Below, one piece after another: positions 5,765 through 60,128 of a DNA stretch of 64,000 nt. Source of the DNA: Verrucomicrobiia bacterium (lineage in GTDB: Bacteria; Verrucomicrobiota; Verrucomicrobiia; Limisphaerales; UBA1319). Below the pieces are notes generated by a model, which had not been told where the DNA came from, made no database searches, and saw only the letters and a list, made by a program, of their open reading frames with translations. Position 1 is the stretch's first letter, and each line of letters opens with the position of its first letter. The stretch spans positions 1,248,001-1,312,000 of the forward strand of contig OY760937.1 of NCBI GenBank assembly GCA_963664225.1, written 5' to 3'. The translations under genes and the position numbers were made by a program.

Positions 5765-5828
5765 GGCCGGTCACCGGACGCCTCGTGAGGACGCTTGGCA
5801 TACAACATTTTCAGGTGTACCACCCCCT

Positions 5829-13198: not shown

Positions 13199-13286
13199 GC
13201 CGGTGTGGCGAAATGGCAGACGCACAGGACTTAAAATCCTGGGACCGTAAAAAGTCGTGTCGGTTCGAGTCCGACCACCGGCACCA
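13199..13286 (+). tRNA. tRNA-Leu (anticodon TAA)
   Basis: Acceptor stem GCCGGTG/CACCGGC, anticodon arm CAGGA-CTTAAAA-TCCTG, long variable arm, GGTTCGAGTCC T-loop, encoded CCA. Confidence 0.97.
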
Positions 13287-13334
13287 CTTGTAAATCATTT
13301 TACATCAAGTCTTTGCGCGTGGGGGAGGCTCCAG

Positions 13335-13358
13335 CGGACACCAAAACGGACACCAAAA
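13335..13358 (+). repeat. tandem 12-bp direct repeat, probable integrase arm-type sites
   Basis: CGGACACCAAAA x2 between the tRNA 3' end and the integrase. Confidence 0.6.
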
Positions 13359-13457
13359 ATGGTAGTCCATTACTAGGGCGTCAGTGCTCGCATATGCGCT
13401 GCCACTACTCCCTAACGCTGGAGAATCGAAGTCAATTACGCTCGATTTCACGAACGT

Positions 13458-14564
13458 ATGAAGACCAGATTCCATTTAATTCGGCGCAATCATCGCGGGG
13501 GAACGTTTTATTGCACGGACACCCTCACCGGCCATCGCACCAGCCTTCAAACAAAGGACGAAGCCGAAGCCACGCAAATCGTGCAGGCCAAAAACCAGGC
13601 TTTGCGCCAGCCCATGCTGAATCTCCAGATTGCCAAAGCGTATTTGGCCGGCAGCGATTCAGGCGTCAACACGCGAACCTGGCAGCATGCTTTTGACGCC
13701 ATCATTAAACTCAAAGAGGGTGAAACCAAAGCGCGTTGGATGCGGGCGTCGTGCGAGGAACCCTTTGAATTGATCCGCAACCGGATTGTCATCGAAACGA
13801 AGGCCGAGCATTTTCTCGAGGTTTTGCAGGATGGAACTGTCAGCACCAATGTTCATCTGCGTAAACTGCACAACTTCTGTTTGGATATGAACTGGCTCCC
13901 TTGGCCCATTCTTCCCAGAAAGCAATGGCCACCCGTTCATTACCAGGAAAAGCGGGCCATCCTGGAAGGGGAACACCGGCAAATCATTCAAGCCGAGAAA
14001 AACGTTGAATTGAAAATGTTCTACGAATTGTGCTGGCACCTCGGCGGATCCCAGTCCGACATCGCCACACTCACCGCAGAATGTATCCAATGGGATGATC
14101 GGGTAATCGCTTATCGGCGCAAGAAAACGCACGTGGTATCCATTTTTCATTTTGGAGATGAGGTTGCCGATATCATTCAAGAACTCTCCACCGCAGGACC
14201 ATTATTCCCACGCCTGGCCCTGATGCACGAAAAACACCGCGCCAAAGAGTTTAAACGCCGCTGCAATGGCTTGGGAATCCACGGCGTGACGCTGCATAGC
14301 TACCGGTATGCGTGGGCGGAACGCGCCAAGAATTGCGGCTATCCAGAACGTTTTGCTCAAGAGGCGCTTGGCCATAACAGCAAGGCGGTTCACCGCGCTT
14401 ATGCGCGGAAAGCGCAGGTCCAGTTGCCAGCCCTCGAAGATTACGAAAAAGCCTATGCGAACAAGAACATTATTCCCTTCGACCTGCAGAAGGGAAAGCT
14501 AAACACGAAGACAACCCTGCTGGGCGGAGAAAACGAAAAAACGACAATGGCGGACAATCATTAA
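13458..14564 (+). CDS. tyrosine recombinase/integrase
   Basis: TLHSYRYAWA (HxxR), LGHNSKAVHRAY (H..Y nucleophile); adjacent to a tRNA. Confidence 0.92.
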   Translation: MKTRFHLIRRNHRGGTFYCTDTLTGHRTSLQTKDEAEATQIVQAKNQALRQPMLNLQIAKAYLAGSDSGVNTRTWQHAFDAIIKLKEGETKARWMRASCEEPFELIRNRIVIETKAEHFLEVLQDGTVSTNVHLRKLHNFCLDMNWLPWPILPRKQWPPVHYQEKRAILEGEHRQIIQAEKNVELKMFYELCWHLGGSQSDIATLTAECIQWDDRVIAYRRKKTHVVSIFHFGDEVADIIQELSTAGPLFPRLALMHEKHRAKEFKRRCNGLGIHGVTLHSYRYAWAERAKNCGYPERFAQEALGHNSKAVHRAYARKAQVQLPALEDYEKAYANKNIIPFDLQKGKLNTKTTLLGGENEKTTMADNH

Positions 14565-14775
14565 GGATTTGCTCACAATCCACCTGCCACCCATCGACTA
14601 CTCGCTAACCGATTTATTGGCGCTTCTGTTTCTCGGGCCTTTGGCAGGCTCGCTCGGCCTGGGGTCTCAATGACCGATGAAACAACGTTTCGGATTGGTT
14701 GACTAGCCGGTTTGAGTTGCGATAGAACGACTTTACCCACGAAGCAGGCACCGGTTCCATCGAAGAACGGGCCCA

Positions 14776-17700: not shown

Positions 17701-20070
17701 AAGCGGCTGGGGCTGGCGCAAAAGCCAATGATTACCGTGCCCAACCACATGCTCGGCCAGTTCACGGCCGAATTGCTGGGGCTGTATCCCGGCGCCAATA
17801 TCCTCGTGGCCACCAAGGACGATTTTGAGAAAGAGAAGCGCAAGACATTGATGAGCCGGATTGCCACGGGGAATTGGGACGCGGTCATCGTCACCCATTC
17901 CGGGTTCGAGAAAATCCCTGTCGCGCGGGAAACCCAGGAGGAATTCTTTCAGGAACACTTGCGGGAATTGGCCCTGGCCATCGAACAGCAGCGAAAGGAG
18001 GGCGACTGTCGTATCATCAAGGCCCTCGAACGCGCCAAGAAACAACTGGAGTCCAAGCTGAAGGAATTGGCGGCGAATGAGAAAAAAGACGACGGCCTCA
18101 CGTTCGAGGAATTGGGCGTGGACCGGTTGTTCGTGGACGAGGCCCATTGTTTCAAGAACCTGTTCTATGTCTCGAAGATGACGCGCATCGCCGGGCTGCC
18201 CCAGACGGCGTCGCAGCGCGCCTTTGATATGTTTCTGAAGGCGCAGCATGTGCAGCGAATGAATGGAGGCGGAGGCGTGGTGTTTGCAACAGGAACGCCG
18301 GTGACCAACAGCGTGGCCGAGATGTTCACCATGCAGCGGTTCCTCCAGATGATGACACTGAAGGATCAGAACGTGGCCCATTTCGATTCCTGGGCGGCGA
18401 CCTTCGGCGAGCCGGTGACGGCGATGGAGTTGGCCCCGGACGGTTCCGGTTATCGGTTACACACTCGTTTTGCCCGGTTCATCAACGTGCCGGAATTAAT
18501 GCAGATGTTCCGTCAAGTGGCCGACATTCAAACGCAGGAGATGCTCAAGTTGCCAGTCCCCGAATTGAGGCAGGGAAAACCGGCCGTCATCAGTTCTCCG
18601 TGCTCACCGGAATTGAAAGAGATCGTTCAGTCGCTGGTCGAGCGGGCTGAGGCATTGCGCACCGGCTCAGTTGATCCACGTGATGACAACATGCTTCTGG
18701 TGACCACCGATGGTCGCAAGGCAGCTCTGGACTTGCGATTGCACGACCCATCGCTGCCCGACCATGACAACAGCAAGGTCAACCGGGCGGTGGAGATGAT
18801 TGAACGCATCTGGCGGGAGACAGCGGAAGGCCGTTCCGCGCAATTGGTGTTCTGCGACATGTCCATTCCGACCGGCGGCAAGGGATTTTCAGTCTATGAA
18901 GACATACGGAACAAATTGATTGCGCGGGGTGTGCCGGATAAGGAAATCGCCTTTATCCAGGACCACGATAGCGATGCCGCCAAGCTGATGCTGTTCCGGG
19001 ATGTGCGGGCAGGCAAGGTGCGGATTCTTATCGGTAGCACACAGAAAATGGGCACTGGTGCGAATGTTCAGGAACGCTTGATAGCCTTGCATCACCTCGA
19101 CGCGCCGTGGCGGCCAGCCGATGTCGAGCAACGGGAAGGCCGGATTCTCCGGCAAGGCAACTCGAATCCTGAAATCCAGATCTACCGATACGTTACCGAA
19201 GCCTCGTTCGACGCCTACATGTGGCAAACGCTCGAGACCAAGGCCAAGTTCATTGGCCAGGTGATGACCGGCGAGAGCGATTTGCGTCGCATCGAGGACA
19301 TCGACGGCACCGCCCTGACCTATGCCGAAGTCAAGGCCATCGCGTCGGGCAATCCGCTCGTGATTGAGAAGGCCCGGATTGATGCCGAGGTGGCGCGCCT
19401 CAGCCGATTGCATTGCGAGCACCAGGAAACTCAATTCCGGCTCCGGTCGCGGGTCCGACACCTGACCGATGAGCTTCCGCGTTTGGAAAAACGGTTGGAG
19501 GATGTGGGCCGGGATATTGGGACACGTCAGGACACAAGCGGCGACAAGTTCGTCCTGATGCTGGAAGATCAGGAGATACGGGATCGCGGTATTGGTGGTG
19601 AACTCCTGCTCCGTCGGGCAGAACGGATACGTGGGAGTCGCTCCGAGCGCCTGGTGGGCAGCTTGGCTGGCTTCCAGTTATTCGTTGCCGACAACTTCAT
19701 GCAAGGCCCCGAATTGGTGATCAAAGGGACCACGACCTACACCGCCAAAGTCACTGACACAGCGCTGGGCACCATCCGCTCGCTGGAGCATACGATTCAA
19801 CACCTCGAAGAGGTATCAGCGAACCTGACCCACAACATCCAAGACAACCGGAAACGACTGACGGATCTTCACGTTCAAGCCAACACGCCCTTCGAATACG
19901 CCGAACGCCTGGTATCGCTCCGACGGCGCCAACAAGAGATTGCGGACGAACTGGATTTGACCAAGAACCAAACGCCTGCCCAACTGGAGACAACGGAAGG
20001 CGATCTTGAAAACGCCATTCCTAGCTGTTGCCCACCTGCTCGGTCATTGCTAGAGCAACGGAAGGACTGA
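14776..20070 (+). CDS. DarB-like large DNA adenine methyltransferase/SNF2 helicase fusion (true start probably near ATG 15193)
   Basis: YVGWGGL, ILEPALGLGHF, ISNIPF MTase motifs; LLAHVVGAGKT, VDEAH, ATGTP, QREGRILRQGN helicase motifs. Confidence 0.92.
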   Translation: MTGRRFMPAAGRVIKNDLQLDLFTFDRRRPAYDQATDATRLNGRETLETISAENGRGTGSQGPTPGHAAGGGGKDRGGPGPDSTAVDSVGPVAPASARPGLGNGPPTLHLTAARVIANGHDSVGHQEGHNAGSDETTTSMPVSPSADEEQQGGAALSFQKPPVFEPEPLRNQTNYRITVGDRLGSGSLKQKCHDNLAAIELLKRLEAEARPPTIEEKRGMVRYVGWGGLPQVFDVWNDEWKEQHERLERLLEPDELESARASTLNAHYTAPQVIRAMYAALQRFGFTQGRILEPALGLGHFIGLMPDEMHSRSLITGIEIDSLTARLAKALYPDADIRHQPFEETKLPDGFYDVAISNIPFGNYKPFDPRFKGWNFLIHDYFFAAALNKIRPGGLILFITSHGTLDKQDAALRNYLFHQADLLGAIRLPNDAFKRNANTEVTTDIVMLRKRLPGETPKGPEWMQTVEITNSVGETISINEYFAAHPEMLLGEMRLEGRMYGRGEATLVGNKRDLAEQLAEAIALLPRDIFRREIKTVENPSLSHTFPAPEHVKPNAYTIVNGQIAIRDEDRLRLLTGLSSQVAARIRGLIRVRDAMRRCLLAQVKEADECEVASSREQLNHAYDYFVARFGPISERANTSAFRGDPDQPLLLSLENYNEETRRATKAAIFRERTIQKKRPLAVVNSPEEALLVTLNERGCVDLDYLVGLLHRRPTEFLPDLRGTIFLNPQTNRWETEDAYLSGNVRAKLETAEAALLLDEQFKINVEALKAVQPTDLSAVEIDARMGSTWIPPEDIERFAEELLGETSIHVSHAPQLGLWVVRGGWSAKISIANTTEWGTEQRSALDLIEDALNLRTPTVYEHDPHTDRDVVDVAATEAARDKQEKIKERFKEWIWQDDARRERLARKYNDEFNHTRLRSFNGNHLTLPGASPAIDLRSHQKAAVWRILQTPNCLLAHVVGAGKTYVMVAAAMELKRLGLAQKPMITVPNHMLGQFTAELLGLYPGANILVATKDDFEKEKRKTLMSRIATGNWDAVIVTHSGFEKIPVARETQEEFFQEHLRELALAIEQQRKEGDCRIIKALERAKKQLESKLKELAANEKKDDGLTFEELGVDRLFVDEAHCFKNLFYVSKMTRIAGLPQTASQRAFDMFLKAQHVQRMNGGGGVVFATGTPVTNSVAEMFTMQRFLQMMTLKDQNVAHFDSWAATFGEPVTAMELAPDGSGYRLHTRFARFINVPELMQMFRQVADIQTQEMLKLPVPELRQGKPAVISSPCSPELKEIVQSLVERAEALRTGSVDPRDDNMLLVTTDGRKAALDLRLHDPSLPDHDNSKVNRAVEMIERIWRETAEGRSAQLVFCDMSIPTGGKGFSVYEDIRNKLIARGVPDKEIAFIQDHDSDAAKLMLFRDVRAGKVRILIGSTQKMGTGANVQERLIALHHLDAPWRPADVEQREGRILRQGNSNPEIQIYRYVTEASFDAYMWQTLETKAKFIGQVMTGESDLRRIEDIDGTALTYAEVKAIASGNPLVIEKARIDAEVARLSRLHCEHQETQFRLRSRVRHLTDELPRLEKRLEDVGRDIGTRQDTSGDKFVLMLEDQEIRDRGIGGELLLRRAERIRGSRSERLVGSLAGFQLFVADNFMQGPELVIKGTTTYTAKVTDTALGTIRSLEHTIQHLEEVSANLTHNIQDNRKRLTDLHVQANTPFEYAERLVSLRRRQQEIADELDLTKNQTPAQLETTEGDLENAIPSCCPPARSLLEQRKD
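14870..15124 (+). CDS. small TnpV-like helical protein
   Basis: AGGAG RBS before ATG 14870; LGLMAEKHWRQYLPKMVAELEAKGQL...AWEMVRQHYILLP resembles TnpV-like mobile-element proteins. Confidence 0.7.
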   Translation: MIKPLTQLGLMAEKHWRQYLPKMVAELEAKGQLQAMLLEAEEKTEADLDRIRRQLIQWGQSPLQAHVQAWEMVRQHYILLPPES

Positions 20071-20906: not shown

Positions 20907-22145
20907 TCAAAGCCCTCTTGGGCCAACAATCACAATAATCCGCATCCGTTCCGTCGTTTCGGACAGATCCTTCTCCAGTGCGGTGGGTTTGTCACAATAC
21001 CTTTCCGGGTCGTAAACGAAGCAAATCAGGGTGCGGCAGTGGGGATGCGATTTGTATCTTTCCTTGTCTTCGGCCAACTGGGAGGTGAGCTCGCGTTGGC
21101 CAAGGTTCTTGCGAGTCATCTTCACCTCGACAACTACCTCTTCAGGCATGAGCAGGAAGTCCATTCGCGCTGAACTTCCTCCGTGGCTGGGAGTGGTTTC
21201 CTCAGGCCGCACGTCTTCAAAATGGAGTTGCAGCAGTGCGTGCATGAGGTCCTGCACGTCATACTCATCCTTGATCTGGATTCCTTTGCGTTTGTCGTGC
21301 CGCTTCTGCAACTGTTTTGCGAACAAGGGAAACCGCCTGCAAATGGATTCTACCAGTGACGCTGCATCCTGCGTGCTTCTGGACAGAATCCAGGTATCGG
21401 CAATGGCGGAGCAGAGCCTTGATCGGATTGCCTGCCTCAGCGAGCAGCAGAGAACGGACGCCTCCGCCAAGTCATGAACGTTTAGCTCAGATTCCAAGCT
21501 ACTCAAAAGCAGAGCCTTGTCCACGGGTGCAAAGGCGTGGTCGGTGAAAGTCGCAAACGCCTTGGAAGCGCTTCCGACCCACCGTGCTAGGGCCAACTCC
21601 TGAGCCCGGAGGCCTGCCCATTGGGATGGTGTATTGACAGTTTTCTGGACGCCAAGGATGTCGCCAGCGAACTGATGCAACGTTGATTCCCAGAAGCTGA
21701 CGCCGCTTGATTTTGCCAACTCTGCCAAAGCACCGATCAGCCACTCCACCTGTTGATCTTCGTGGTGTTTGCAGCAGGACAATCCAAGTGCAAGGCCAAC
21801 CACTTCGAGCGGGCGATATGCAAACGACGAACGGTCCACAGGGAACAATTCGCGCTTCTGGAGCCGCTGCAAGGCTTTCAGCCACGCAGCCTCGTCTGGC
21901 AGAGCCGACCGCCACAGCCCAGCCGCCATCGCGCTACCTGCAGCGGCGAGAATTGGGGCTTCGTCAAGGCGCTTCGCGTCCAGTGAAATCTTGGCCTCTG
22001 TCAGAAATGAAGGCACTTCACCGATTTTCCTGTAAATGACACCCGCGAATGCCATCGCTGGCGAAAAAGACCCCACGTTACGCCGTTGGAACTCATCCAG
22101 GCGTGCCAACTGAGCCGCGAGGCTGTGGTGCAAGACGTCGCTCAT
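20907..22145 (-). CDS. Argonaute-associated nuclease with C-terminal DpnII/MboI-like PD-(D/E)XK domain
   Basis: DEYDVQDLMHALL...VRPEETTPSHGGSSARMDFLL...VVEVK motif; ATG at 22145 overlaps the pAgo stop (ATGA). Confidence 0.88.
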   Translation of the reverse strand: MSDVLHHSLAAQLARLDEFQRRNVGSFSPAMAFAGVIYRKIGEVPSFLTEAKISLDAKRLDEAPILAAAGSAMAAGLWRSALPDEAAWLKALQRLQKRELFPVDRSSFAYRPLEVVGLALGLSCCKHHEDQQVEWLIGALAELAKSSGVSFWESTLHQFAGDILGVQKTVNTPSQWAGLRAQELALARWVGSASKAFATFTDHAFAPVDKALLLSSLESELNVHDLAEASVLCCSLRQAIRSRLCSAIADTWILSRSTQDAASLVESICRRFPLFAKQLQKRHDKRKGIQIKDEYDVQDLMHALLQLHFEDVRPEETTPSHGGSSARMDFLLMPEEVVVEVKMTRKNLGQRELTSQLAEDKERYKSHPHCRTLICFVYDPERYCDKPTALEKDLSETTERMRIIVIVGPRGL

Positions 22146-24433
22146 AGGAACCATTTGCTTGCGCGCAACTTGATGTTCAGCATCGCTGGTGACCAATCAG
22201 GGACGGTTCGCATCCGACTCAACAGGCCGGCGATCAGCTCGGAATAGTAGATGGTGACGGGCAGCTTTGCCGGCAGAGTGGAACGCCACGACAGAGAGGT
22301 GAACTTCAACACCTGCTCAGCCAGCGAAGCCAGGTCACGATAACTGGATTCTGGATGAATACGCACCAGCAAGGGCACCGGCAGCGGTGAAACCGGGCGC
22401 TTGATCAATTCAGGTCCGTTGGTGCAGAGCAGCCGCGTGAAAGCTCCAAGCTGCGCGATGACACCACGCTGCGGCACGAAAACGGCCTTCCTCATTTCAC
22501 CGTGGTTCCTCATCGGTATGCCTGGCTGATCGCAATCAAACAGTCGGAACGGATGATCCTGCGTGACAGTCAGGAACGCGAACTCCACGTTCTGTTCATC
22601 TCCAACGGTTGCGACGCAGTCCTTCATGATGCTCGCAAGCTCCAGCTTCTTGAGCGGCTTAAAGGAATGCACGACCACGCGAACGGTGTCCCCCGGCTGC
22701 CAACCGTTTCGTTTCTTGATCTCTTTCAGGATCTCCACAGTCGAACGCTGAAGCACCTCCGGATAGTCGTCGTATCCACACTCCGATGACAGGTTCGAGA
22801 GCAGATAGTTTCCATCACCCCTGAAAACGGTGGTGATGCCGATGAAACGCTTGCGAGCCTCGAACCTGCTTTCTCGCATCTCGCAGGAACCGAGACCGAG
22901 CACCAACTCGTCCGCGATGGTCAGGTCGTGGTCCACTGTCCAAGGGATGCCGTTCAGCTTCGCGTAAAGGGCCACTGAGATGTTTTGCAGGTTATACTGG
23001 AGACTGGCTTCGGGCTGGCTGATGGTAAACACTCGAACATCCTGCACCGGGATTCCGGCCATCAGCAGCACTGCCTTGGAGTGAAGATATGGGTTTTGCG
23101 GGTCTGGAAGTCTGGCGTGGTCGTTCAAAATCGTCACGATGGCAGCATCGAACTGCGCGTCCCGACTCAGGAACTCGCTGATCGTTCTGCGGTATATTGC
23201 GGCTGGACTATCGTTTTGTCGGGGGAAGAGCGGTATGCGGCAGGGCACGAACTGGGGATTCACCAGGCAGAAAGATTTTGCAAAACCACCACCGTAGCGG
23301 CTATTCTGTAATCCTGTGATACCATCCCGGAAATACTTGAGGAAGCGCTCTGCCGGTCCTTGCACCGAATCCGGAAACACGAAGAGAATCCGCGGCGACT
23401 TCTTGGCCAAGGTGTCGCGGCTGAACGGGCCGAAACTCTCGAGACCAGGCCAGGCATATTTGTTCCTCTTGCTACGCGCTGAATCGAAGCAATAGTCTAC
23501 CACTGGAGCCTGAACAACAGTCTTGTAGTTGCCCACGTTCTGCATTCGGATGCGTTCACCGATTGAACACTGGATATCCGGACACAAAGTCAGCGGAGAT
23601 GCCTTTCGCAAATACTCACCCATGCGCCCAACCCGTTCGTCGAGGGCATCGCCAACCAGCACCAGTCCCTCTTGCTCTTGGCGTTCCTTTTCGAAGTCAT
23701 CGTATGCCTTGCCAAGCAACTGCTTGAGGCAATGTGCGAACGAAGCCCTCGACCCCTCCAGAAGAACATCGTCCACGAAAATGTCAGTCACTTTGTCGTG
23801 GGCTTCAGAGAGCGTGATTCTCTGCCCGATCACTTCCTTGATGCGGCCAACCAGCCTGCGGCCTTTTGGATCTGGAACCCGTCGCACGACATAAAGCCCT
23901 GCCACATCAATCCCAGACGTCTTGAGTTCGTCCAAGGGTGCGAGAATCTGCCAGTTCGTGGCGATGTCCACGAAAAGTCCGACCCGCAGCTCTCCCTCGC
24001 GCAATTCAATCATCCTGGCGTCCAACTCGAAAGTAAGGGAAATCTTGAACTTGCTCACAACGGGCGGGAGCCGTGTCAGCCGGGTTAAGATCGCTGCCAC
24101 AATTTCTTCTTTCTGACCACGAAACTTGAATGGCTTGCGCCGAAACGCTTCATACTGTGGGAACTTCTCCGGTAAAACGTCCGTCAACCGTCGCGCCAAC
24201 AGGGAGAGATGATCGGCGACTTTCAGCGTCTGTGCATGCCCGAATGGTTTTGACGGCGTTGCGCATTTCGGCAGTCCGTATGCAACCCCATCGTGCCAGT
24301 GGATAAACCATTCATCACCCAGTGCCTCCCGAGTAGGTTCCAACTGCTGGTTGTCGGGCATCGGGCTGACATAGCCGGTGAAGTCCTCCTTCGTGAAGGA
24401 CACTGAAAAGCCGTTGAAGAACAGGTTGCTCAT
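22142..24433 (-). CDS. long-B prokaryotic Argonaute (RsAgo-like, catalytically inactive PIWI)
   Basis: MID YLHSK..VQ..NISVALYAKLNGIPW; PIWI LVLGLG (no catalytic Asp), IGITTVFRGDGNY, KFTSLSWRSTLP..PVTIYYSELIA, terminal SKWFL; recalled close resemblance to Rhodobacter sphaeroides Ago. Confidence 0.95.
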   Translation of the reverse strand: MSNLFFNGFSVSFTKEDFTGYVSPMPDNQQLEPTREALGDEWFIHWHDGVAYGLPKCATPSKPFGHAQTLKVADHLSLLARRLTDVLPEKFPQYEAFRRKPFKFRGQKEEIVAAILTRLTRLPPVVSKFKISLTFELDARMIELREGELRVGLFVDIATNWQILAPLDELKTSGIDVAGLYVVRRVPDPKGRRLVGRIKEVIGQRITLSEAHDKVTDIFVDDVLLEGSRASFAHCLKQLLGKAYDDFEKERQEQEGLVLVGDALDERVGRMGEYLRKASPLTLCPDIQCSIGERIRMQNVGNYKTVVQAPVVDYCFDSARSKRNKYAWPGLESFGPFSRDTLAKKSPRILFVFPDSVQGPAERFLKYFRDGITGLQNSRYGGGFAKSFCLVNPQFVPCRIPLFPRQNDSPAAIYRRTISEFLSRDAQFDAAIVTILNDHARLPDPQNPYLHSKAVLLMAGIPVQDVRVFTISQPEASLQYNLQNISVALYAKLNGIPWTVDHDLTIADELVLGLGSCEMRESRFEARKRFIGITTVFRGDGNYLLSNLSSECGYDDYPEVLQRSTVEILKEIKKRNGWQPGDTVRVVVHSFKPLKKLELASIMKDCVATVGDEQNVEFAFLTVTQDHPFRLFDCDQPGIPMRNHGEMRKAVFVPQRGVIAQLGAFTRLLCTNGPELIKRPVSPLPVPLLVRIHPESSYRDLASLAEQVLKFTSLSWRSTLPAKLPVTIYYSELIAGLLSRMRTVPDWSPAMLNIKLRASKWFL

Positions 24434-41859: not shown

Positions 41860-42327
41860 TTAAGGTTTCCGCGGGCGCATTTCGTCATGTTCTTGGAAGG
41901 AGTAAAACCCCGCGTTACCAATGACCAGGTGATCTAATACGGGAATCCCCAGGAGTTCGCCCGCTTCCTGAAGTCGGTGCGTCACCGCGACATCCTCCGC
42001 GCTGGGGATGATTCCCCCGGCATTCTGACCCGAAGTATGGTTGTGAGCGACGATGATCGATGTGGCACCGGCCGCCAGAGCGGCTTGAAAAACTTCCTTG
42101 GCGCCGACGGGGCAACTGGAAGCCGTTCCCGTCGCGGCCACATAGTAGCCCATGACTTGGTTGCGGTTATCGAGAAACAGGGTTAAAAAATGCTCGCGGA
42201 CGTTATCCGGTAAAACCCGCCGCATGAATTCGGCCGCTTTCGCGGGTGAACCGACCGCGTCAAAAGTGACTCCCCGGCGTGGTCCTCGATATTTCAGCGA
42301 CACCTCACGAACAAAAACAACAGCCAT
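41860..42327 (-). CDS. short RadC-like JAB-domain protein
   Basis: REHFLTLFLD, IIVAHNHTSG...SAED, VLDHLVIG. Confidence 0.88.
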   Translation of the reverse strand: MAVVFVREVSLKYRGPRRGVTFDAVGSPAKAAEFMRRVLPDNVREHFLTLFLDNRNQVMGYYVAATGTASSCPVGAKEVFQAALAAGATSIIVAHNHTSGQNAGGIIPSAEDVAVTHRLQEAGELLGIPVLDHLVIGNAGFYSFQEHDEMRPRKP

Positions 42328-42393: not shown

Positions 42394-43299
42394 TTAAGCA
42401 GTCGCCTGCAAGACTTCGCGCTCCTCGTTCCCCCCGTCGGTGGGATCCTGAATGGGGATCTTCCCGCGGATAAAGTCGGCGGCGCGCTGGGCAGCCGAGG
42501 CCGCCCGAACAAGAATCCGGCTATCCTGCCGGAACACGCGCGCCCAGCCTTCGATGTAACTGGCCTGGAGCATTTCGGTGTCCGGATTCTGTATTCCCGC
42601 AAAGCCACACAGGAAGGCAGCGCCAAACTCAGCGACCAGCTCCTCGAAGGAATATTTTTCGACACGGTCGCCTTCGGCCTCGGCGAAGCGGTTCAAGCGC
42701 CGTGGATGGCCCGAGGAATGCACCAATTCATGGAAAAGGGTCGCGTAATACTCATCAGCACTCTCGAATTGGCTCAAGTGCGGCAAGGTGACGCGGTCCA
42801 AGCGCGGGCTGTAAGCGGGTTGCGCTATGATGGCATGGACGATTTCCGGTTTGTCGGGCATGACGTCGAGCATCTGATCGGCGAGCTGGACCCGGTCGTC
42901 AAGCCGGGGTTGGACGTCGTCATCGGGTCGTGCGACACCTTCGACTTGGTCGAGATTAAACACGGCGCTCACAAACGGCACGCAGGGAGCGATCTGTTGC
43001 TGGCCTGTGAGCTCGGCACGTCGGGCGAGTTCTTCGAGGGTGCGCCATTTCCAATAAACCACGGGCGTCGCGCGCTGGCCCTTACGGACGTGTCCGCCTT
43101 GGCGCTGGGCCTCCCGATAGGTGAGCCAATACGGGGAAGTGTATTCGGTGCAGCCCAGCACCAGAATATTAATACCGCGGTATTCCTTGGCGGTGGCGAG
43201 GCTCTTGGGCAGGCCCGTCTTCCAGGTCTTGCGCCAGGGGACTTGACCGGCGGCGAGTTGATTCAAAATGCGGGCGGTGACCGTTTCATAAATGCTCAT
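42394..43299 (-). CDS. ardC: ArdC-family ssDNA-binding antirestriction protein with zincin-like domain
   Basis: VPWRKTW, YRGINIL, WLTYREA..GGHVRKGQR, TLFHELVHSSGH..RLNR, YSFEELVAE. Confidence 0.9.
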   Translation of the reverse strand: MSIYETVTARILNQLAAGQVPWRKTWKTGLPKSLATAKEYRGINILVLGCTEYTSPYWLTYREAQRQGGHVRKGQRATPVVYWKWRTLEELARRAELTGQQQIAPCVPFVSAVFNLDQVEGVARPDDDVQPRLDDRVQLADQMLDVMPDKPEIVHAIIAQPAYSPRLDRVTLPHLSQFESADEYYATLFHELVHSSGHPRRLNRFAEAEGDRVEKYSFEELVAEFGAAFLCGFAGIQNPDTEMLQASYIEGWARVFRQDSRILVRAASAAQRAADFIRGKIPIQDPTDGGNEEREVLQATA

Positions 43300-43361
43300 G
43301 GTTCGTATCTCCTTGTTGGATTTAAAAGGCCGTCGGAGCGGATTCCCCGGCGGCGGGTTTT

Positions 43362-51538: not shown

Positions 51539-51799
51539 TTATGCGGACGGTTCTTCCTTCTCCTGGCCTTGCTTGAAGATCCAGGTGTGTGACAGGTCGG
51601 CGACCTTGCGGAGCACCAGCAGGTCATCCCGCCCGAAGGAGTCGGTCGATTTCCACTGGTCGTCTTCCTTTTCTTTGTAGATGCGGCTGAACGTGACGTT
51701 GTAGCGCACACCCCCGGCCGTGTCGTTCTTCCAGATGGCGGCCTTGACGGTGCCGATCCGGATCTCTTGTATGGGTCTGTCTTTGGGTTTGAGCATCAT
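51539..51799 (-). CDS. conserved small mobile-element protein, possibly ssDNA-binding
   Basis: IRIGTVKAAIWKN..YNVTFSRIYK..WKSTDSFGRDDLL family pattern. Confidence 0.75.
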   Translation of the reverse strand: MMLKPKDRPIQEIRIGTVKAAIWKNDTAGGVRYNVTFSRIYKEKEDDQWKSTDSFGRDDLLVLRKVADLSHTWIFKQGQEKEEPSA

Positions 51800-53636: not shown

Positions 53637-53710
53637 TTAAGGTTTTGAGAACAGAGTTCGAAGTTAGGGTCAGAAATCGCGAACCGGCGCGCGGGGTTGC
53701 CGTGCTTTTT

Positions 53711-53839
53711 CTGCCCCGAATCCCGGTAAATCCTGTCTCGACTCCCACTGCCCGGCTGCCCCGGTTCCCGGTAAAACCTGCCTCAAATCCCGCCCCCAAA
53801 CTGTCCCGGTTCCCAGTAGCGTTCTGTCTCAAATCCCAC
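53711..53839. repeat. three ~38-bp iteron-like direct repeats at 45-bp period (candidate oriV)
   Basis: CTGCCCCGAATCCCGGTAAATCCTGTCTCGACTCCCAC / CTGCCCCGGTTCCCGGTAAAACCTGCCTCAAATCCCGC / CTGTCCCGGTTCCCAGTAGCGTTCTGTCTCAAATCCCAC. Confidence 0.8.
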
Positions 53840-53960
53840 TCTGGTTTTTGTAACACATTTTAACACGCGTGGGTAGGTCATGATTCCGAAGTTTGCAGGC
53901 TCCCTCCCTATCGCTCCGCGCCTGCGCGAGCACAGAAAGCGATGGTATAACGCCTGCAAA

Positions 53961-53996
53961 TGGTATTTGTATTGGTATTGGTATTGGTATTTGTAA
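53961..53996. repeat. hexamer tandem repeat (TGGTAT) x6, degenerate
   Basis: TGGTAT TTGTAT TGGTAT TGGTAT TGGTAT TTGTAA between repA and parA. Confidence 0.8.
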
Positions 53997-54087
53997 TGGC
54001 CCCCGATCCGGCGACTTGCCGATGTTTCGTCCATCCATTCGCATGGCCGGGGGGAGCGTTATTAACCCAAATGAGCCGGAGGCGACG

Positions 54088-54180
54088 TGTAAAATGCATG
54101 TTTGCAGGCATGCTGGATTGCATGCAAGTCTGCAGGTCCGCAAGCAGGAATGTCTTGATATATACTCTCTTGCATATATG
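54088..54180. promoter_or_regulatory. TGCA-periodic region, candidate parS centromere/par operator
   Basis: Repeated TGCA/TGCATG units directly upstream of parA, as in type Ib partition loci. Confidence 0.45.
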
Positions 54181-54256
54181 TCAGTTTAAGTGCTAGTAAG
54201 ACAATATGCCCGCGACACTGAAGCCGCGGGCCATTTTGTTCAGGGAGGGGAAGGCA

Positions 54257-54916
54257 ATGATCGTCGCGCTCAGCAATTCCAAAGGCGGAGTGGGCAAGTC
54301 CACCCTGGCCGTGCATCTGGCCGTGTCGTGGCTTGAAGAGGGGACGGGCGTCGCGTTGGTGGATGCCGACGTGCAAGGCTCGTCGTCGGGGTGGCTCCAT
54401 GAAGCCGCCCCGCAATTGCCGGTGTTCCGGTTACAAACTCCCGACGAGGTGCTGGAGCAGGTGCCGGTCATCGCGGGCCAGTTCCAGCGGGTCGTGATTG
54501 ACGGGCCGGCGGGGCTTTCCGAGGTCACGCGGGCCATCCTCTTGGTGGCTGACATCGCGCTCCTGCCCTGCGGGCCATCCGTCCTGGATTTGCGGGCTGT
54601 GCATGAAGCGTTGCGCGTCGTGAGGCAGGCCCAGCAGATCCGTCAGGGACCTCCGAGCCCGATGGTCGTTCCCAACAAGCTGCAGGTTCAATACCGGCTC
54701 AGCCAGGAGTTGTTGGAAACTGCGAAATCGCTGGGCATCCCATCGCTGCCGGGTCTGCGCCTGCGCCAGGCGTATGCGGACGCCGCAGGGCAGGGCACAG
54801 TGGTCTGGCGGATGGGGCCGCGCGGTGAAGCCGCCGCATCGGAATTGAGAAACCTCTTTCAGGAGTTGGCCAGCTATGAATCGTCGAACTTTGAGCGCCG
54901 CGCTGCAAACGGTTAG
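54257..54916 (+). CDS. parA: type Ib plasmid partition ATPase ParA
   Basis: NSKGGVGKSTLA, VDADVQGS, VIDGP; short, no N-terminal HTH. Confidence 0.9.
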   Translation: MIVALSNSKGGVGKSTLAVHLAVSWLEEGTGVALVDADVQGSSSGWLHEAAPQLPVFRLQTPDEVLEQVPVIAGQFQRVVIDGPAGLSEVTRAILLVADIALLPCGPSVLDLRAVHEALRVVRQAQQIRQGPPSPMVVPNKLQVQYRLSQELLETAKSLGIPSLPGLRLRQAYADAAGQGTVVWRMGPRGEAAASELRNLFQELASYESSNFERRAANG

Positions 54917-55250
54917 CCTGACCGAATCGGCATTGGATTTCGTGAAGGCCGGCAATGCCAGACCAGCCCTGGACACCACGGCCGCCACGCCGATTCCGCC
55001 AACAAGCGCCGAGGAACCGCGTCCGGCAGGGAATGGATTGAAGCCGCGCTGGCAAGTCGGCGATGAAGCGGAACTCGAAGCAGACGCGGGTCTGGTCTCG
55101 TTGACCGTGCGGGTGCCGCGTGGTGTGCCGACGGGATTGCTGCTGGCCTCGATGGACCGGAAGCTCAAGCGCCAACGTCCTTGGACCCAGCAGGAAATCG
55201 TCGCCGAGGCCCTGACTCAATGGCTAAAGCAGCATGGATATCTGTCTTGA
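54876..55250 (+). CDS. ParG-like ribbon-helix-helix partition partner
   Basis: Flexible N-terminus, then SLTVRVP..TQQEIVAEALTQWL; overlaps parA. Confidence 0.7.
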   Translation: MNRRTLSAALQTVSLTESALDFVKAGNARPALDTTAATPIPPTSAEEPRPAGNGLKPRWQVGDEAELEADAGLVSLTVRVPRGVPTGLLLASMDRKLKRQRPWTQQEIVAEALTQWLKQHGYLS

Positions 55251-55274
55251 ACGAAAGTGATAAAGGGAGGAAGT

Positions 55275-55634
55275 ATGGAAGACCTGAACCGTTTGATTGA
55301 TGTCACGACCTTCGGCACGGTGCGCCGTTACCTCAGAGCCGCGCCTTCGCCCCGCACGACCGTCATGCTGGTGCGACACCGTGACATATTGCCACGCGTG
55401 GGCACGGCGCTGGTGACGGACCCGGGCAACCGCCGGACCTTTCGTCGCCGACAGTGGGCCGATTGGCTCACCTCGGGCGAGGTCCGATTCGACGGGACCC
55501 CCACCGCAGGCCAAAGCGCAAATCTCGACGCGATCCCGGACTCCGCTCTCTGCGATGTGCTTTACGTGCCGCCATTTTACCTGGTGTCCCTGCGCGGCTA
55601 CAAGGTGCCGGTGGTGCGTCGCGCTGACGCCTGA
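55275..55634 (+). CDS. hypothetical protein
   Basis: GGGAGG RBS before ATG 55275; plausible globular composition. Confidence 0.65.
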   Translation: MEDLNRLIDVTTFGTVRRYLRAAPSPRTTVMLVRHRDILPRVGTALVTDPGNRRTFRRRQWADWLTSGEVRFDGTPTAGQSANLDAIPDSALCDVLYVPPFYLVSLRGYKVPVVRRADA

Positions 55635-55739
55635 CATCCCTCCTATCGCGGTTCAAACCGTGTCTCATATTTTCCGCTACCAACGCCGTGCGGGAAGTGC
55701 TACGCATGGCACAGTGGGAGGTTTTGTTCTCCCCCAAAC

Positions 55740-57060
55740 GTGAGGATTGCCCACGCAATCTTTGACGTCGTTGTGATCGGCGCTGGCACCCGGAAAACCT
55801 GGCTCACCACCAGGCTAAGGGGACGGTCTTACCAACCGTCATGTCAGTGTCCCGTAGAGCGTGGTGCCACGAGAGTGGCCCGCCACGTTCGAGGGAGGCT
55901 TTCGGAAGTAATCCCGCCTTATCAGCGGAGTAATCTCCGGATTCTATCCCATAACGAGATGGTGCTCGTGAATGCGGGCGAGCGGGACACGCCGGTTGCT
56001 GAAATGCAGCCGGTCGGTCCTGTCCAAAATGGGTGCGTCGTGCCCAGGGGCACGGCATATCCCTCGGCGGGAATCGGACCAAAGCCGCAAGGCCAATCGG
56101 GTGCAAGGCTCGACAGGTTCGTTTAACGCGCGCTGGCGTCGGGAGCTTCCCGGTGGCAACACCGAGGAACCGGAGGCCGACAACCTCCGGGGTTCTGCCA
56201 AAACAGCAGACCGTGAAAAGCTCAACGATGAGAGGGGCGTCAAGCCCTTGCCAGTAAACGATAGCAGAGACGGAGCCGAATCGGCGAAGTTCAACCAGGG
56301 TGGGTAAGGGGGCGCTTCTGTATTCTATCCCCTGAAATCAGTCCCGCAGTGGGACTGGAAACCATGCCGGGGCGGGAGCCTCGGACATGCCTGGTGAGCG
56401 TGGACGCTTGCGCGTCCAGCCAACGTGACTGCTGTGGTGAAGGACAGGAATAACCGCGCAAGGAGTGTGGCGGCCGGAGTGGTATCCGGTGCCGGCGTGT
56501 CAGCCGGTGCTTCAATAGCCGCACTCTGATGAGAGTGCCCCAAGTAGGACCAGGCGGAGCCTGGACCCAATCGCCTTCGGCTTTCGAGCCGAAGGCAGGG
56601 TGTCACTCCAGCAAGGCAGTTGGAGTGGCGGGTGCGCGTCAACGGGTGGTGCCGGGCGCAACAGCACACACGAAAGGGGTGACGGGATAAATCGGTCACA
56701 ACGATGTGGTGGGCAGGTGGAATCAAACTCCACCTGCCCGCTGCCTAACCGACAAAGATTTGCGTTCCGCATATCGTTCCTGGGGACAGGCCACGATGCA
56801 TGGAAGGCAGCCTTATACATTGGAGAAACAGCCATGAGTGGGTGAACGAAGAGGATTTAAGCAGCCGCTACCGCCATGGATGGGCAACTGCAACATTGGA
56901 ATGCAGCGCGCGCGCCGTGATGGCCGAAGAACCTGCGCTTTGCGTGGACCAGAGGTTCTGAGACGGGCTTGCGGGGGGCGCGTTATTCGAGCGAGTGACA
57001 GGCTGCAAGAAGGTTACGGCTTTCGGGAGGTTGCGCCGCATAAGCAACCTTCCACCCTTT
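55740..57060 (+). ncRNA. large highly structured non-coding RNA candidate (group II intron-like or MISL-like); boundaries approximate
   Basis: No credible ORF; more than 15 hairpins, several with GNRA/TTCG tetraloops; long-range 14-bp helix 55767-55780 with 56692-56705 using G-U pairs on the + strand. Confidence 0.75.
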
Positions 57061-57090
57061 AGACGCCATAACACCGTTTGGAGGTGTGGT

Positions 57091-57720
57091 ATGGCATATC
57101 GGTGTGTGGCGGTTTCCGTGGCCGGATTCGTCCAGCAACTGGCCGTGGCTTACGTGGCTAACGGCTATTGGTTTTACGTGATGGGCCGGGTGCCGGATCC
57201 CAAAGATCCGGTCAGCGTGGATCGCAAGATGGTGACGCAATACGGGATCGATGTCTCGAAGTGGACGCGGGCGCGCTGCAAGAAAACGGGTCAGGCGCGC
57301 GTGCAGTATCTTCGATACGGCCGGTTCTTTGTGATTCTCGCGACCCACGGAGAGCACCCGTTCTTCGCCGTGGAGGGCAAGCAGGTTCGGGATTTCCGGC
57401 GGCATCCGCTCCACTTCATGGGCTACGCGATCAGTTGCCGCCAGGGACGCGATGGCAAGACCTGGCACCCATCGGTCCGCATCGATCGCGGGTTGTGCCT
57501 CGAATTGAAGGCCCGCTTTGCTGCGCTCGCCGTGCATCGGCCGCTTGAAGAGTTGTGCCGTGAACTCAGGCGGATTGATTTTGAGCCCTATGCGCCCGTC
57601 CGCGATCAACTCCGCGGCATCCTGCGGGCCGTGAACCGCCGCCGCAAAGCCGCTGGCCTGGAACTGGTGCCATGGGAAGCGCTCTGGCTGCGGCGAATGC
57701 CGGTCAAGCCATTCGGATAA
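57091..57720 (+). CDS. basic conserved hypothetical protein of PVC-type mobile elements
   Basis: GGAGGT RBS; GFVQQLAVAY..GYWFYV..KDP..D.K..YGID.SKW.RAR..VQYLRY..FFVILATHG; Arg-rich. Confidence 0.8.
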   Translation: MAYRCVAVSVAGFVQQLAVAYVANGYWFYVMGRVPDPKDPVSVDRKMVTQYGIDVSKWTRARCKKTGQARVQYLRYGRFFVILATHGEHPFFAVEGKQVRDFRRHPLHFMGYAISCRQGRDGKTWHPSVRIDRGLCLELKARFAALAVHRPLEELCRELRRIDFEPYAPVRDQLRGILRAVNRRRKAAGLELVPWEALWLRRMPVKPFG

Positions 57721-57726
57721 TCTGTG

Positions 57727-58347
57727 CTACTGAAGGTAGCCCAATTCGCGTAAGGATAGGAAATCCTTGGGCCGTTCGGTGGTGGCCTGGCCCAGGATGA
57801 TATGGTCCAGAACCTCGATTTTGAGCAATTGGCCCGCTCGGACTAGCTCGCAGGTGACTTTGATGTCAGCCGCACTGGGGGTGGGGTCGCCGCTGGGATG
57901 ATTATGCGCGAGAATAATGGCCGCCGCCCGATGGGCTATGGCTGTGCCAAAAACTTCGCGCGGATGGACCAGAATGGTGTCCAAGGTGCCCTGGGAGATG
58001 GTTTGCACCGCAATCAGGCGCCGACGGGAGTTCACCAGGATCGTCTGGAAAACCTCAACGGTGTAAAGCCGGTTTCGCTCACGCAACAGGTCCGCCACAC
58101 GTTCCGGGGCGTCCAGCATGGGCGGCTCGATAATGGTCTCGTGGCTGAGGCGCTGGGCGAGAAGGAAGGCCGATTTGATGGCGGCAGCGCGTGATTTGCC
58201 TACGCCTTTGATTTGTTGGAGTTCGTTGAGCGAGACCTGCGCCAGCTTGGTCAGCCCTCCGTATTCTTCCATCAGCATTGTCGCGGCCGATTTGCCGGCC
58301 AGCGTGGAAAGCAGGTCAACATTGCTGGCGTGTTCGAAATGCTCCAT
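57727..58347 (-). CDS. radC: RadC-family JAB protein with HhH domain
   Basis: ELQQIKGVGKSRA HhH; GTLDTILVHPREVF, AHNHPSGDPTPS..D, LDHIILG; start ATG 58347. Confidence 0.9.
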   Translation of the reverse strand: MEHFEHASNVDLLSTLAGKSAATMLMEEYGGLTKLAQVSLNELQQIKGVGKSRAAAIKSAFLLAQRLSHETIIEPPMLDAPERVADLLRERNRLYTVEVFQTILVNSRRRLIAVQTISQGTLDTILVHPREVFGTAIAHRAAAIILAHNHPSGDPTPSAADIKVTCELVRAGQLLKIEVLDHIILGQATTERPKDFLSLRELGYLQ

Positions 58348-58773
58348 GGCTTGATCCCTCCCTTCGATGGGACGAATCTTACCACTGTTTGAATCCTTAA
58401 GGAACAATTTGGAGGCCGTGTTCTATTGCAATGACCGTGCCATGGATTGGCCGGATACGACGTGTTACATGTTACACCGAAGTGGAGGTCCGAAGACCGG
58501 CGGCATCGGGGCGACGAGGCCCGGGCGCACGCCCCTTGGATCGCGGGCCTCGCAGCCGAGCGGAGCGAGGGGCACCTTGGGCCGCCGCAGTTGAGGGCCG
58601 GAACTATGCCTGGATAGGCTTGAATTGGCATCTCACTTCACACGGTAGATTATGAACTGCTCTGGCAATATTCGTGAGCCTATCGTCGGCAAGCTCGCCG
58701 TACAATCAGTTCGGGTTCCACTGACAACGCGTGGGCAATACCTATCCTTTGGCGCTGGCCGCAACTTCAAATT

Positions 58774-59028
58774 ATGGGAACACTGAACGGATTGTTTTTA
58801 AGGGTTCATTTCGCTTGCACTATCGCCGTCATCATCTACGTTTTGAGACTCTTGAAGCGGTTTGTGGGTGCTCATGAGCGAGTTGCGAGCGCTCTTGAGA
58901 GCGAATCTCGTATGATGCGAGAGAATAGTAAGCCATGGAAGTATTATTTTGCCAAGCCAAGCAGATGCTCAGAACCCTGCCATGACGACGCTGTTCCAAT
59001 GGAGGCTTCACTGGCGCGGGGTATGTGA
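58774..59028 (+). CDS. small membrane hypothetical protein (cassette-like)
   Basis: One TM helix followed by FVGAHERVASALE; reads into an attC-like hairpin. Confidence 0.4.
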   Translation: MGTLNGLFLRVHFACTIAVIIYVLRLLKRFVGAHERVASALESESRMMRENSKPWKYYFAKPSRCSEPCHDDAVPMEASLARGM

Positions 59029-59043
59029 TCTGCGACGTTAGGC
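58951..59043 (+). other. degenerate attC-like recombination site
   Basis: Hairpin GCAGATGCTCA..ACCCTGCCA / TGGCGCGGGGT..TGTGATCTGC ending in GTTAGGC (R' box); R'' box degenerate (GCCAAGC). Confidence 0.45.
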
Positions 59044-59234
59044 GTCGTTACCATGAGGCCATCTTAGATGCGTTCGCCCTGTTGAGCGAGGCGGAATTAC
59101 AATTGATTTAATCCAAAAACCTGATTGCTTTTGCTGAATGAATAACCGGAAAGCCCAATGGGCATTCTGTCACAGCCCGACATTTTGTGGAAGCAGCAGG
59201 CCGCTGCCGAAGAGGAATATGGATTGCAGCAGAT

Positions 59235-60128
59235 TCATTTCTCATGTGCCTTAAGCGCCTCGAATCCTGAAATCACGTCAAAAAGTTCCTCGTCAATGCC
59301 GCTCTGGCGCAAACGGTGGAACGTACCGTGAAGATGTTCCATCAAGTCATCAATATTTTTATCGGCGCGCTGCATCGCCGCCAGGCGGCTCGCGTTCTCG
59401 CTCGCGAGGGATTCGGCGCACGCCCTGAACAGCGAGATGAACAGATACTCGCGAATGAGAGCGCGCAACGTCGCTGTGCCTCCACCCATGACTTCAGGCA
59501 AGGTCTTTGTCGGCCATGGAACTTTGGCCAGACTCTGAGCCCACGCCCCATCGAGCGGCAGCAATCGTTGGCTAACCGGTTCATAGAGCGCCCCGGATTG
59601 CGGGCGGTTGTGAAAGACGTAAAGCTGCGCATACTCACCTTCCGCCCGGTGCGCTTCGCTTTCAATTTGAATCTCTCCAACGAGCGGAGTAATGGCCCGG
59701 ACGGAATTCGGGATGGCGAACAATCCTATAGGCGGCAAGCCCGCATCCGTCAGCCGCGCGTGAACACGCTCACCGACGGCCCAGACATGGGGTTTGCCAG
59801 GTAGAGCGGCCAGAGTCTTAACCGCAAAATCGGCCACCACATCGTTGAACTGGCCGACCAGTCCTTGATCTGAACCAAACACAACTGCGCCAATCGCACC
59901 GGCATCGGTTTGTCCTCTCCGTTCCACCAGTAAAGTCGCAGGTTCGTTTTCCCGAAAACACGCGCCCAACCCCAACTGCACGGTTCGATAGTAGTCGCCT
60001 AACGCGTGCACAGATTTCTCGTATTGACCGATGCTCGAAGCAGCCAGTGCTTTCATCGTGCGGACGACGGATTGGAGATCCCCAGCACTGCTTATTTTCC
60101 GGCGCAAACTCGCTGTGGTGTCGCTCAT
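59235..60128 (-). CDS. atpG: N-type F1Fo ATPase gamma subunit
   Basis: [40 protein letters not shown]. Confidence 0.95.

Follow-up and report, generated by a model that had tools for sequence, protein, structure and literature searches.

Circularly permuted group II ribozymes and the locus of this study

Circularly permuted (CP) group II ribozymes, formerly known as 'T-large' RNA, were described by Roth, Weinberg, Vanderschuren, Murdock, and Breaker (2021, iScience, PMC8637638). According to the text of that paper, the two splice sites stand in reversed order, with the 3' site (NU) first and the 5' site (GGGCG) after it, RNA circles of 15–86 nt are formed, exon binding site 1 (EBS1) contacts intron binding site 1 (IBS1), and the ribozymes process themselves in vitro without protein. 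As far as the same text goes, the RNA class and its association with the gene acpG are already published; AcpG is characterized there as being without detectable homology to any protein class, and the Discussion speculates on a maturase-like cofactor role, homology not having been found. Later structural papers treat CP ribozymes or introns, in the text available from them, as lacking an intron-encoded protein (IEP). CP group II ribozymes are structurally well studied, but neither what they do in the cell nor their partner protein has been explained.

In this study, we analyzed a window of 64,000 nt (the whole stretch of DNA considered here; Verrucomicrobiia bacterium, GenBank assembly GCA_963664225.1, contig OY760937.1, positions 1,248,001–1,312,000), in which positions 55754–56764 (+), judged by domain order and covariation, encode a CP group II self-splicing ribozyme of the published class. 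It is followed on the same strand by a gene for a basic protein of 209 aa (57091–57720), which profile comparison identifies as a distant member of the AcpG (TTHC007) family. It is part of a very large clade with 1259 protein clusters at 50% identity, and in this clade the RNA is nearly always accompanied by an AcpG-like gene. Our literature search found only PMC8637638 to pair AcpG with group II RNAs and nothing on this verrucomicrobial and planctomycete clade, its near-obligate co-oriented gene, or a maturase-like AcpG fold, with subscription journals mostly outside the search and members possibly listed in the supplement of PMC8637638.

Domain organization of the ribozyme

The RNA was assigned to the CP class because domains 5 and 6 (D5–D6) precede D1–D3, its ends pair as D4, its splice sites are reversed, and IBS1–EBS1 covaries. 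The order deduced from the alignment is D4 (3' half)–P1/P2–D5–D6–linker–D1–D2–D3–D4 (5' half). The individual features, including the leader with the ribosome binding site (RBS) and the open reading frame (ORF) downstream, are as follows.

55754–56764 (+): core of the CP group II ribozyme, bounded on either side by the outermost strands of the D4-type closing stems (RNAalifold and pair counts)
55765–55780 (+): D4-type closing stem, strand at the 5' terminus, predicted to pair with 56692–56707 (16 bp, all changed on both sides)
55781–55849 (+): small stems forming a three-way insert ahead of D5 (helices 4–7, all covarying), by analogy probably P1/P2 of the published class
55850–55855 (+): 3' strand of the D4 base, predicted to pair with 56682–56687 right after D3 (6 bp, 100% paired, 4 covarying)
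55857–55890 (+): D5 with AGC triad (55858–55860), GAGA tetraloop (55871–55874), and a 2-nt bulge on the 3' strand
55893–55950 (+): D6 with bulged branch-point A55946 (Rfam alignment; 13 bp, 10 covarying)
55951–55952 (+): 3' splice site AU, cut after 55952
55953–55975 (+): linker of 23 nt between the 3' and 5' splice sites, expected to leave as an RNA circle; IBS1 occupies its final 6 nt
55976–56457 (+): D1, opening with the 5' splice-site motif GGGCG (55976–55980); basal stems 55982–55985/56454–56457 and 56017–56025/56442–56450 covary
56320–56325 (+): EBS1 loop, predicted to pair with IBS1 (55970–55975)
56462–56527 (+): D2 with a closing stem of 10 bp, all covarying, and two inner hairpins
56528–56535 (+): purine-rich putative J2/3 linker, assigned from the sequence; a conserved alignment block
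56536–56681 (+): D3, the base of which carries a conserved internal loop; closing stem 56536–56541/56676–56681, loop strands near-invariant
56682–56707 (+): 5' strand of the D4-type stem, with the partners 55850–55855 and 55765–55780
56765–57090 (+): structured, partly conserved leader with hairpin 57026–57052 and RBS GGAGG (57080–57084)
57091–57720 (+): AcpG-like basic protein of 209 aa with a predicted fold like the palm and thumb of a reverse transcriptase (RT); polymerase site absent

For the comparative analysis, relatives of the 209-aa protein were collected (2082 at 90% clustering and the 1259 clusters at 50% identity mentioned above, all without a name). A scan of species-representative genomes led to 195 confirmed loci, the best 80 of which were analyzed; judged by record title, they stem from metagenome-assembled genomes of Verrucomicrobiota, Planctomycetota, Acidobacteriota, Thermoleophilia, and Hyphomicrobiales. 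BLASTN followed by three nhmmer rounds revealed that the non-coding stretch upstream of the gene is conserved in most of these 80 loci. For the RNA alignment, the window was combined with 42 of the 54 loci harboring the full-length RNA (n = 43), 12 close relatives having been dropped by eye; the core ranged from 842 to 1030 nt with a median of 947 nt. Within 401 representative genomes of the phylum, a search with the DNA found only the genome itself apart from three matches of about 30 nt at chance level, and a search with the protein found the genome itself plus two weak or partial matches, so that the pair appears to be rare among species representatives, yet common in metagenomes.

RNAalifold analysis of the 43 sequences resulted in about 50 helices, which together with one added pseudoknot comprise 307 proposed pairs. 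Standard pairing was present in 90.5% of the 12,831 cells compared to 69.8% in shuffled alignments, none of the 500 shuffles reaching 90.5%, and dropped to 37–42% when partners were slid by 1–3 columns. Changes on both sides were detected in 249 of the 307 pairs. These counts exclude a hidden coding sequence or a decayed remnant and bear out the preliminary description of this DNA, made from the sequence alone, insofar as it had placed a structured region between the ORFs of 119 and 209 aa. The RNA is neither a novel giant RNA nor a mere leader, the latter having been raised there as an alternative, and belongs to a ribozyme class already in print.

The D5 helix comprises 14 bp (99% paired, 8 covarying) with two unpaired columns on the 3' strand, and its AGC triad is identical in all of 32 sequences. 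Rfam model RF00029 (group II D5–D6) matched 55855–55952 (+) with 44.3 bits compared to a gathering score of 40 (E-value of 1.8e-7 to 9e-7); this match surfaced under relaxed filters, and a scan of the whole window at the gathering threshold yielded only a tRNA. A family for CP ribozymes is absent from the Rfam library. In D6, the sequence TTCTA including A55946 was likewise invariant (32/32), with A55946 unpaired and 6 nt before the 3' splice site. On the other side of the linker, GGGCGA was present in all 43 sequences. IBS1 and EBS1 form standard pairs in 42, 42, 40, 40, 38, and 31 of the 43 sequences at the six positions, respectively, with many double changes, e.g., UA 17, CG 10, GU 8, and AU 3 for the pair 55973–56322. 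Linker lengths ranged from 15 to 140 nt (median 24, 43 sequences), and apart from IBS1 the linker sequence is poorly conserved, which argues against a sequence-specific role of the circle across hosts. The internal loop at the base of D3 probably corresponds to the E-loop, by analogy with the description in the text of PMC8637638.

Downstream of the core, the leader covers about 330 nt up to the ORF and contains conserved blocks in an alignment of 41 sequences, in particular the hairpin 57026–57052 (9 bp, 8 covarying). The RBS had been placed about 25 nt past this last hairpin, and we measured 27 nt for GGAGG, which lies 6 nt before the ATG of the 209-aa ORF.

Two other assignments of splice sites were considered and dropped. 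An ordinary group II intron without ORF, running from GTGCG at 55320 or 55371 to 55952, would overlap the 119-aa ORF upstream; this was rejected since the unit common to other loci and to a second copy in the same genome starts only at 55650–55750, the 119-aa ORF is conserved at the protein level, and D1–D3 lie downstream. Placing the 5' splice site at GUGCG (56033), which would lead to a circle of 80 nt, was discarded as well, as the class uses GGGCG and EBS1–IBS1 covariation puts the site at 55975|55976.

Comparison with published group II RNAs

With regard to the CP class as described in the text of PMC8637638, the RNA shares the position of D5–D6 before D1–D4, NU upstream of GGGCG, a linker of comparable size (23 nt here, 15–86 nt published), EBS1–IBS1, probably the purine-rich J2/3, ends pairing as D4, a core of about 900 nt (median 947 nt here), and a home on plasmids or mobile elements near replication genes. 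Differences were found in the hosts, since that text names Deinococcus-Thermus, Firmicutes, and Proteobacteria, whereas our loci derive from the phyla and groups given above, and in the region behind the 3' end, which here is followed almost invariably by a conserved leader of about 330 nt and a co-oriented ORF. A canonical group II intron, in contrast, has the order D1–D6 with the 5' splice site at its 5' end, which was not seen here: no D1-like sequence was identified upstream of D5, and the conserved unit starts about 100–200 nt before D5 (about 55650–55750).

A direct comparison was made with the ribozyme of Thermus plasmid pTT8. A covariance model built from 32 clade sequences (R1, window positions 55848–56068) matched pTT8 at 5810–5699 (−) with 24.5 bits and an E-value of 1.6e-6 in 74,128 bases. 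The match comprises the 5' splice site plus the beginning of D1, the D5–D6 of pTT8 being skipped by the alignment, and nhmmer gave weak collinear matches (E-value of 0.066). While D5 of the present RNA passes the gathering score of RF00029, the pTT8 ribozyme had no match to RF00029 at E ≤ 1 and none of meaning to Rfam as a whole.

The 209-aa protein, a distant AcpG relative with a maturase-like predicted fold

The deduced protein contains 28 Arg, 10 Lys, and 25 Trp/Tyr/Phe residues (isoelectric point of 10.4), as expected from the preliminary description, which had called it rich in Arg and aromatic residues. For the comparison with AcpG, the divergent pTT8 gene beside the ribozyme (259 aa) was taken as TTHC007/AcpG from its size and position. 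Using hhalign, an alignment of 68 members against 22 AcpG sequences resulted in a probability of 94% (E-value of 1.4e-7) over 181 columns, compared to 45% (E-value of 2.2e-4) with a shallower alignment; on these profiles the protein is grouped as a distant member of the AcpG family. Both are small basic proteins with no Pfam family, encoded beside CP group II ribozymes. Their predicted helices and strands follow one another in a similar order, and the structures that match best are maturase-like and the same for both. They differ in length (209 aa compared to about 260 aa) and in gene arrangement, as published acpG genes are, by the text of PMC8637638, variably oriented and sometimes kilobases off or absent, whereas the gene here lies co-oriented downstream.

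The AlphaFold model reached a predicted local distance difference test score (pLDDT) of 86.5. Among the Foldseek hits, retron RTs rank first; RTs of group II introns, G2L4 RT, and viral RNA polymerases come lower, with weak scores. Maturase and RT chains 8h2h_D, 8t2s_D, 6me0_C, 8fli_B, and 6ar1_A were compared; the best structural matches of the predicted fold are group II intron maturases. The structural alignments start at about maturase residues 104–156, implying that the fingers are absent. No DD dipeptide and hence no YxDD is present, D44 being the sole invariant acidic residue among 68 members, and together with the missing fingers this means that the protein cannot be a conventional polymerase. 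The predicted fold corresponds to the palm and thumb (X) of a group II intron maturase, with both the fingers and the catalytic aspartates missing, and classical AcpG is predicted to fold in the same way.

Compared to a group II IEP, the gene occupies a similar place, just beyond the 5' strand of D4, and has a group II ribozyme as its RNA partner, but it lacks similarity at the sequence level, fingers, YxDD, and a DNA-binding or endonuclease domain. A likeness to the RT-like domain of spliceosomal Prp8 exists at the level of the fold only, with a higher root-mean-square deviation than to bacterial maturases; Prp8, moreover, is a eukaryotic giant multidomain protein.

Linkage of RNA and protein

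Linkage was determined from both sides. Starting from the protein, 64 of the 80 loci had at least 1450 nt of upstream sequence: a full RNA was directly adjacent in 46 and separated by an insertion of 0.3–2.4 kb before the RBS in 12, so that it precedes 58 of the 64 homologues. Two further loci carried a partial RNA. Among the 16 loci with a short upstream region, 13 displayed the 3' part of the RNA up to the contig edge. The RNA-seeded set came from a scan of metagenome contigs for the splice-site motif and comprised at least 80 loci. Among the matches listed, the AcpG-like ORF followed on the same strand at 1050–1500 nt from the motif in 27 of the 31 loci whose downstream sequence covers at least 2100 nt, the start of this ORF was visible in 11 of the 12 with 1300–2100 nt, and 37 loci were too short to judge. 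The RNA and the 209-aa protein are thus a conserved co-oriented pair, linked both ways, across several phyla. Flanking genes differ between loci, whereas the pair and its spacing persist, and the association with the ribozyme is kept by two distantly related protein clades, the 209-aa clade and AcpG.

The spot just before the RBS of the AcpG-like gene is a recurrent insertion site. Searching the ORFs of inserts from 7 of the 12 loci against Pfam identified TrwC-like genes (L018, L045) and DUF3368 (L015, L033) and nothing in L069 and L074. At locus L012 (1117–3514), an insertion sequence with a DDE_5 transposase interrupts the ribozyme itself.

Proposed mechanism and alternative explanations

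We favor the reading, with a probability of about 0.6, that a CP group II ribozyme acts here with an AcpG-family palm–thumb protein as its maturase-like cofactor. The reaction would follow the chemistry shown in vitro for the class in the text of PMC8637638: the 2'-OH of the D6 branch A55946 would attack the 5' splice site 55975|55976 in front of GGGCG, and the freed 3'-OH of the linker would then attack the upstream 3' splice site 55952|55953. The products would be a linker circle of 23 nt and a T-shaped branched RNA, whose long arm would carry D1–D4 and the leader, together with the downstream ORF in the case of co-transcription. The 209-aa protein may bind the ribozyme, with the D4 stem and the leader hairpin as conceivable sites, and may aid folding and back-splicing as a 'maturase without polymerase'; possibly, it also regulates its own translation. 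Such a role as a polymerase-dead, maturase-like RNA chaperone is inferred from the position of the ORF, which is that of an IEP gene immediately behind the 5' strand of D4. The scheme presumes that RNA and ORF are co-transcribed, that the protein binds and acts as a cofactor, and that the circle forms in vivo. The preliminary description had guessed at an RNA-binding protein or maturase substitute, a guess that fits the predicted fold and the distant AcpG homology. Should it be correct, the unexplained partner gains a testable identity, namely that of a cofactor lowering the Mg2+ requirement for back-splicing, and a compact natural ribonucleoprotein for making RNA circles would be on offer.

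Several results weigh against this reading. BLASTP of the 209-aa protein against pTT8 AcpG found nothing. In Pfam, no RT family was detected at E ≤ 0.1, only BtrH_N at chance level, and a profile search of the PDB revealed no RT at E ≤ 10, only matches at chance level. In the Atlas, the protein falls among unnamed clusters, with one lead (0.80) to a cluster in which 15% of the members have RVT_1. On the side of the linkage, the RNA was absent within 5 kb in 4 of the 64 protein-seeded loci, and no ORF was found within 3 kb in 4 of the 31 RNA-seeded loci. According to the text of PMC8637638, many CP ribozymes have no acpG nearby, and Roth et al. caution there that association need not mean interaction. 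Finally, the unrelated genes between RNA and ORF in 12 loci mean that co-transcription is not obligatory.

The ribozyme could instead be mainly a processing leader acting in cis, in that self-branching would give the mRNA a 2'-5' branched 5' end and set its stability or translation, with the job of the protein elsewhere on the element, e.g., on DNA. The shared strand, the fixed spacing, and the conserved structured leader with a hairpin 27 nt before the RBS would suit such a role, as would the fact that a scan of 55200–57900 detected neither a terminator-like nor a sigma-70-like site between RNA and ORF and that the chemistry published in PMC8637638 would leave the ORF on the D1–D4 arm. However, known acpG genes are, by the text of the same paper, in many cases oriented away from or towards their ribozyme or far from it, an arrangement for which a purely cis role cannot account, foreign genes between RNA and ORF are tolerated in the 12 loci described above, and the maturase-like predicted fold points to RNA binding, so that we rate this explanation as unlikely. 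Far less probable still, to the point of being negligible, is a decayed ordinary group II intron or a hidden coding sequence with no functional RNA. The sole match of the RNA to Rfam is indeed the D5–D6 model, ORFs of 100–133 aa overlap the region (in the ORF listing, all ORFs in 55640–57090 have at most 133 aa), and the GTGCG words at 55320 and 55371 lie upstream; but compensatory changes are spread over 249 of 307 pairs in 43 sequences from several phyla, the nucleotides of splice sites, branch point, and triad are invariant, no D1–D4 precedes D5 in a conserved unit that begins at about 55650–55750, and the overlapping ORFs belong to no Pfam family.

Going beyond the favored reading of a ribozyme with a maturase-like cofactor, one may tentatively ask where the protein comes from. 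AcpG-family proteins, the 209-aa clade included, could be domesticated, polymerase-dead descendants of an IEP, with the gene still at its ancestral D4 position. Permuted ribozyme and AcpG would then be a complete rearranged intron ribonucleoprotein that has exchanged retromobility for a different function on plasmids and integrative elements, with the protein required for back-splicing in vivo. We consider this descent a speculation with the odds somewhat against it; if true, ribozyme and AcpG would be the bacterial counterpart of Prp8 and the spliceosomal RNAs.

Neighboring genes

The order and strand of the genes noted previously (parA, its partner, the 119-aa ORF, the structured region, and the 209-aa ORF, all on the (+) strand) agreed with our map, in which the following neighbors were annotated.

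54206–54916 (+): ParA-type P-loop ATPase (Pfam matches AAA_31, CbiA, ParA, and MipZ), a neighbor outside the core unit
54876–55250 (+): 124-aa protein after ParA, previously labeled ribbon-helix-helix (RHH)/ParG; a neighbor with tblastn homologues at 19 of 80 loci
55275–55634 (+): 119-aa basic protein, family unassigned, with a GGAGG-type RBS; an optional gene outside the unit
55647–55662 (+): terminator-like hairpin and T-run directly 3' of the 119-aa gene, a consensus match only
57727–58407 (−): RadC-like JAB protein (Pfam RadC, 1.3e-38), convergent and a frequent neighbor

Pfam searches resulted in no family match for either the 124-aa protein, whose RHH assignment is the label of the preliminary description, or the 119-aa protein. 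Within 55200–57900, the hairpin 55647–55662 was the only terminator-like site, and it probably marks the end of the par operon; a promoter scan of the same region identified no sigma-70-like site.

Among the 80 loci, upstream and downstream neighbors included RepA in 18, a strong ParA in about 19, an RHH-like gene in 19, and RadC downstream in 31. A homologue of the 119-aa gene was detected by tblastn in 7 of the 80, two of them at only 35–39% identity. Conservation at the protein level down to this identity indicates a real gene, and its occurrence in only 7 loci and its absence from the second copy in the genome place it as optional and outside the unit. The unit therefore consists of RNA and protein, often with RadC, and not of the par cassette. 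Accordingly, the 119-aa gene loses the place in the cassette that had been proposed for it, and the suggested tie to parA/parG and element maintenance shrinks to the neighborhood of a verrucomicrobial subset. Work cited in the text of PMC8637638 showed pTT8 to replicate in the absence of its ribozyme, an argument against a simple role in replication.

The integrated element and the second copy

Mapping of ORFs together with Pfam and Rfam searches revealed that the wider window contains an integrated mobilizable element, flanked by the following features.

13199–13283: tRNA at the integrase side of the element, with a tyrosine integrase beside it
59235 onwards: host ATP-synthase genes, beyond the cassette

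From the tRNA, the element is organized into integrase, defense cargo, RadC, TrwB-type coupling protein, TrwC relaxase, and sigma factor, followed by RepA (RPA family), ParA, and the ribozyme cassette before the host ATP-synthase genes. For the right end of the element, comparison with the tRNA region yielded no exact repeats of at least 12 nt in 58300–59300.

The genome is a single contig of 5.78 Mb and harbors a second copy of 55650–57906 at 96% identity inside another integrated element, which is of the tRNA type and located at genome positions 2730673–2799007. The ribozyme–AcpG-like–RadC block is 96–97% identical between both elements, and a block at the integrase side (14631–19997, 5.4 kb; region 13323–19997) is similarly close with 94.6%, while the other backbone is only 64–78% alike (e.g., at most 78% for 42460–43316 and 51555–51796). 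This pattern suggests that both blocks were recently exchanged between the two elements. The repeat common to both copies begins only at 55650, and RepA, ParA, the RHH-like gene, and the 119-aa gene are all absent from the neighborhood of the second copy; the genome has a single further ParA match (31% identity, about 1 Mb away), and no close homologue was located around the second copy. The module of RNA, protein, and often RadC travels on integrative or mobilizable elements and plasmids.

In the second copy, RadC is split by an insertion of about 4 kb (genome 2794168–2798807), which opens with a gene of the phage-integrase family (L002, 3577–4446). On the element in the window, two RadC-like JAB-domain genes were found (41860–42327 and 57727–58407). 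Its cargo between 14776 and 40965 is a defense island encoding an SNF2-type helicase, a DpnII/MboI-type restriction enzyme, DEAD and MrfA-type helicases, a Piwi-domain (prokaryotic Argonaute-like) protein (22142–24433), and an Eco57I-like methylase/nuclease. The gap between repA and parA (53640–54200) has a low G+C content of 0.50–0.52, and every frame reads as short periodic peptides (QYQYQY, NTNTNT, GIGIGI), indicating a short tandem repeat, which may represent iterons or a partition site.

Further repeats were detected in the window. A stretch of 2.56 kb (220–2798), presumably an insertion sequence, occurs at five further sites in the genome with 99.8–100% identity, and repeats at 2804–2865 and 10298–10567 (about 60–260 nt), resembling repetitive extragenic palindromes or miniature inverted-repeat transposable elements (REP/MITE-like), were identified at 5–8 further genome sites each with 75–93% identity.

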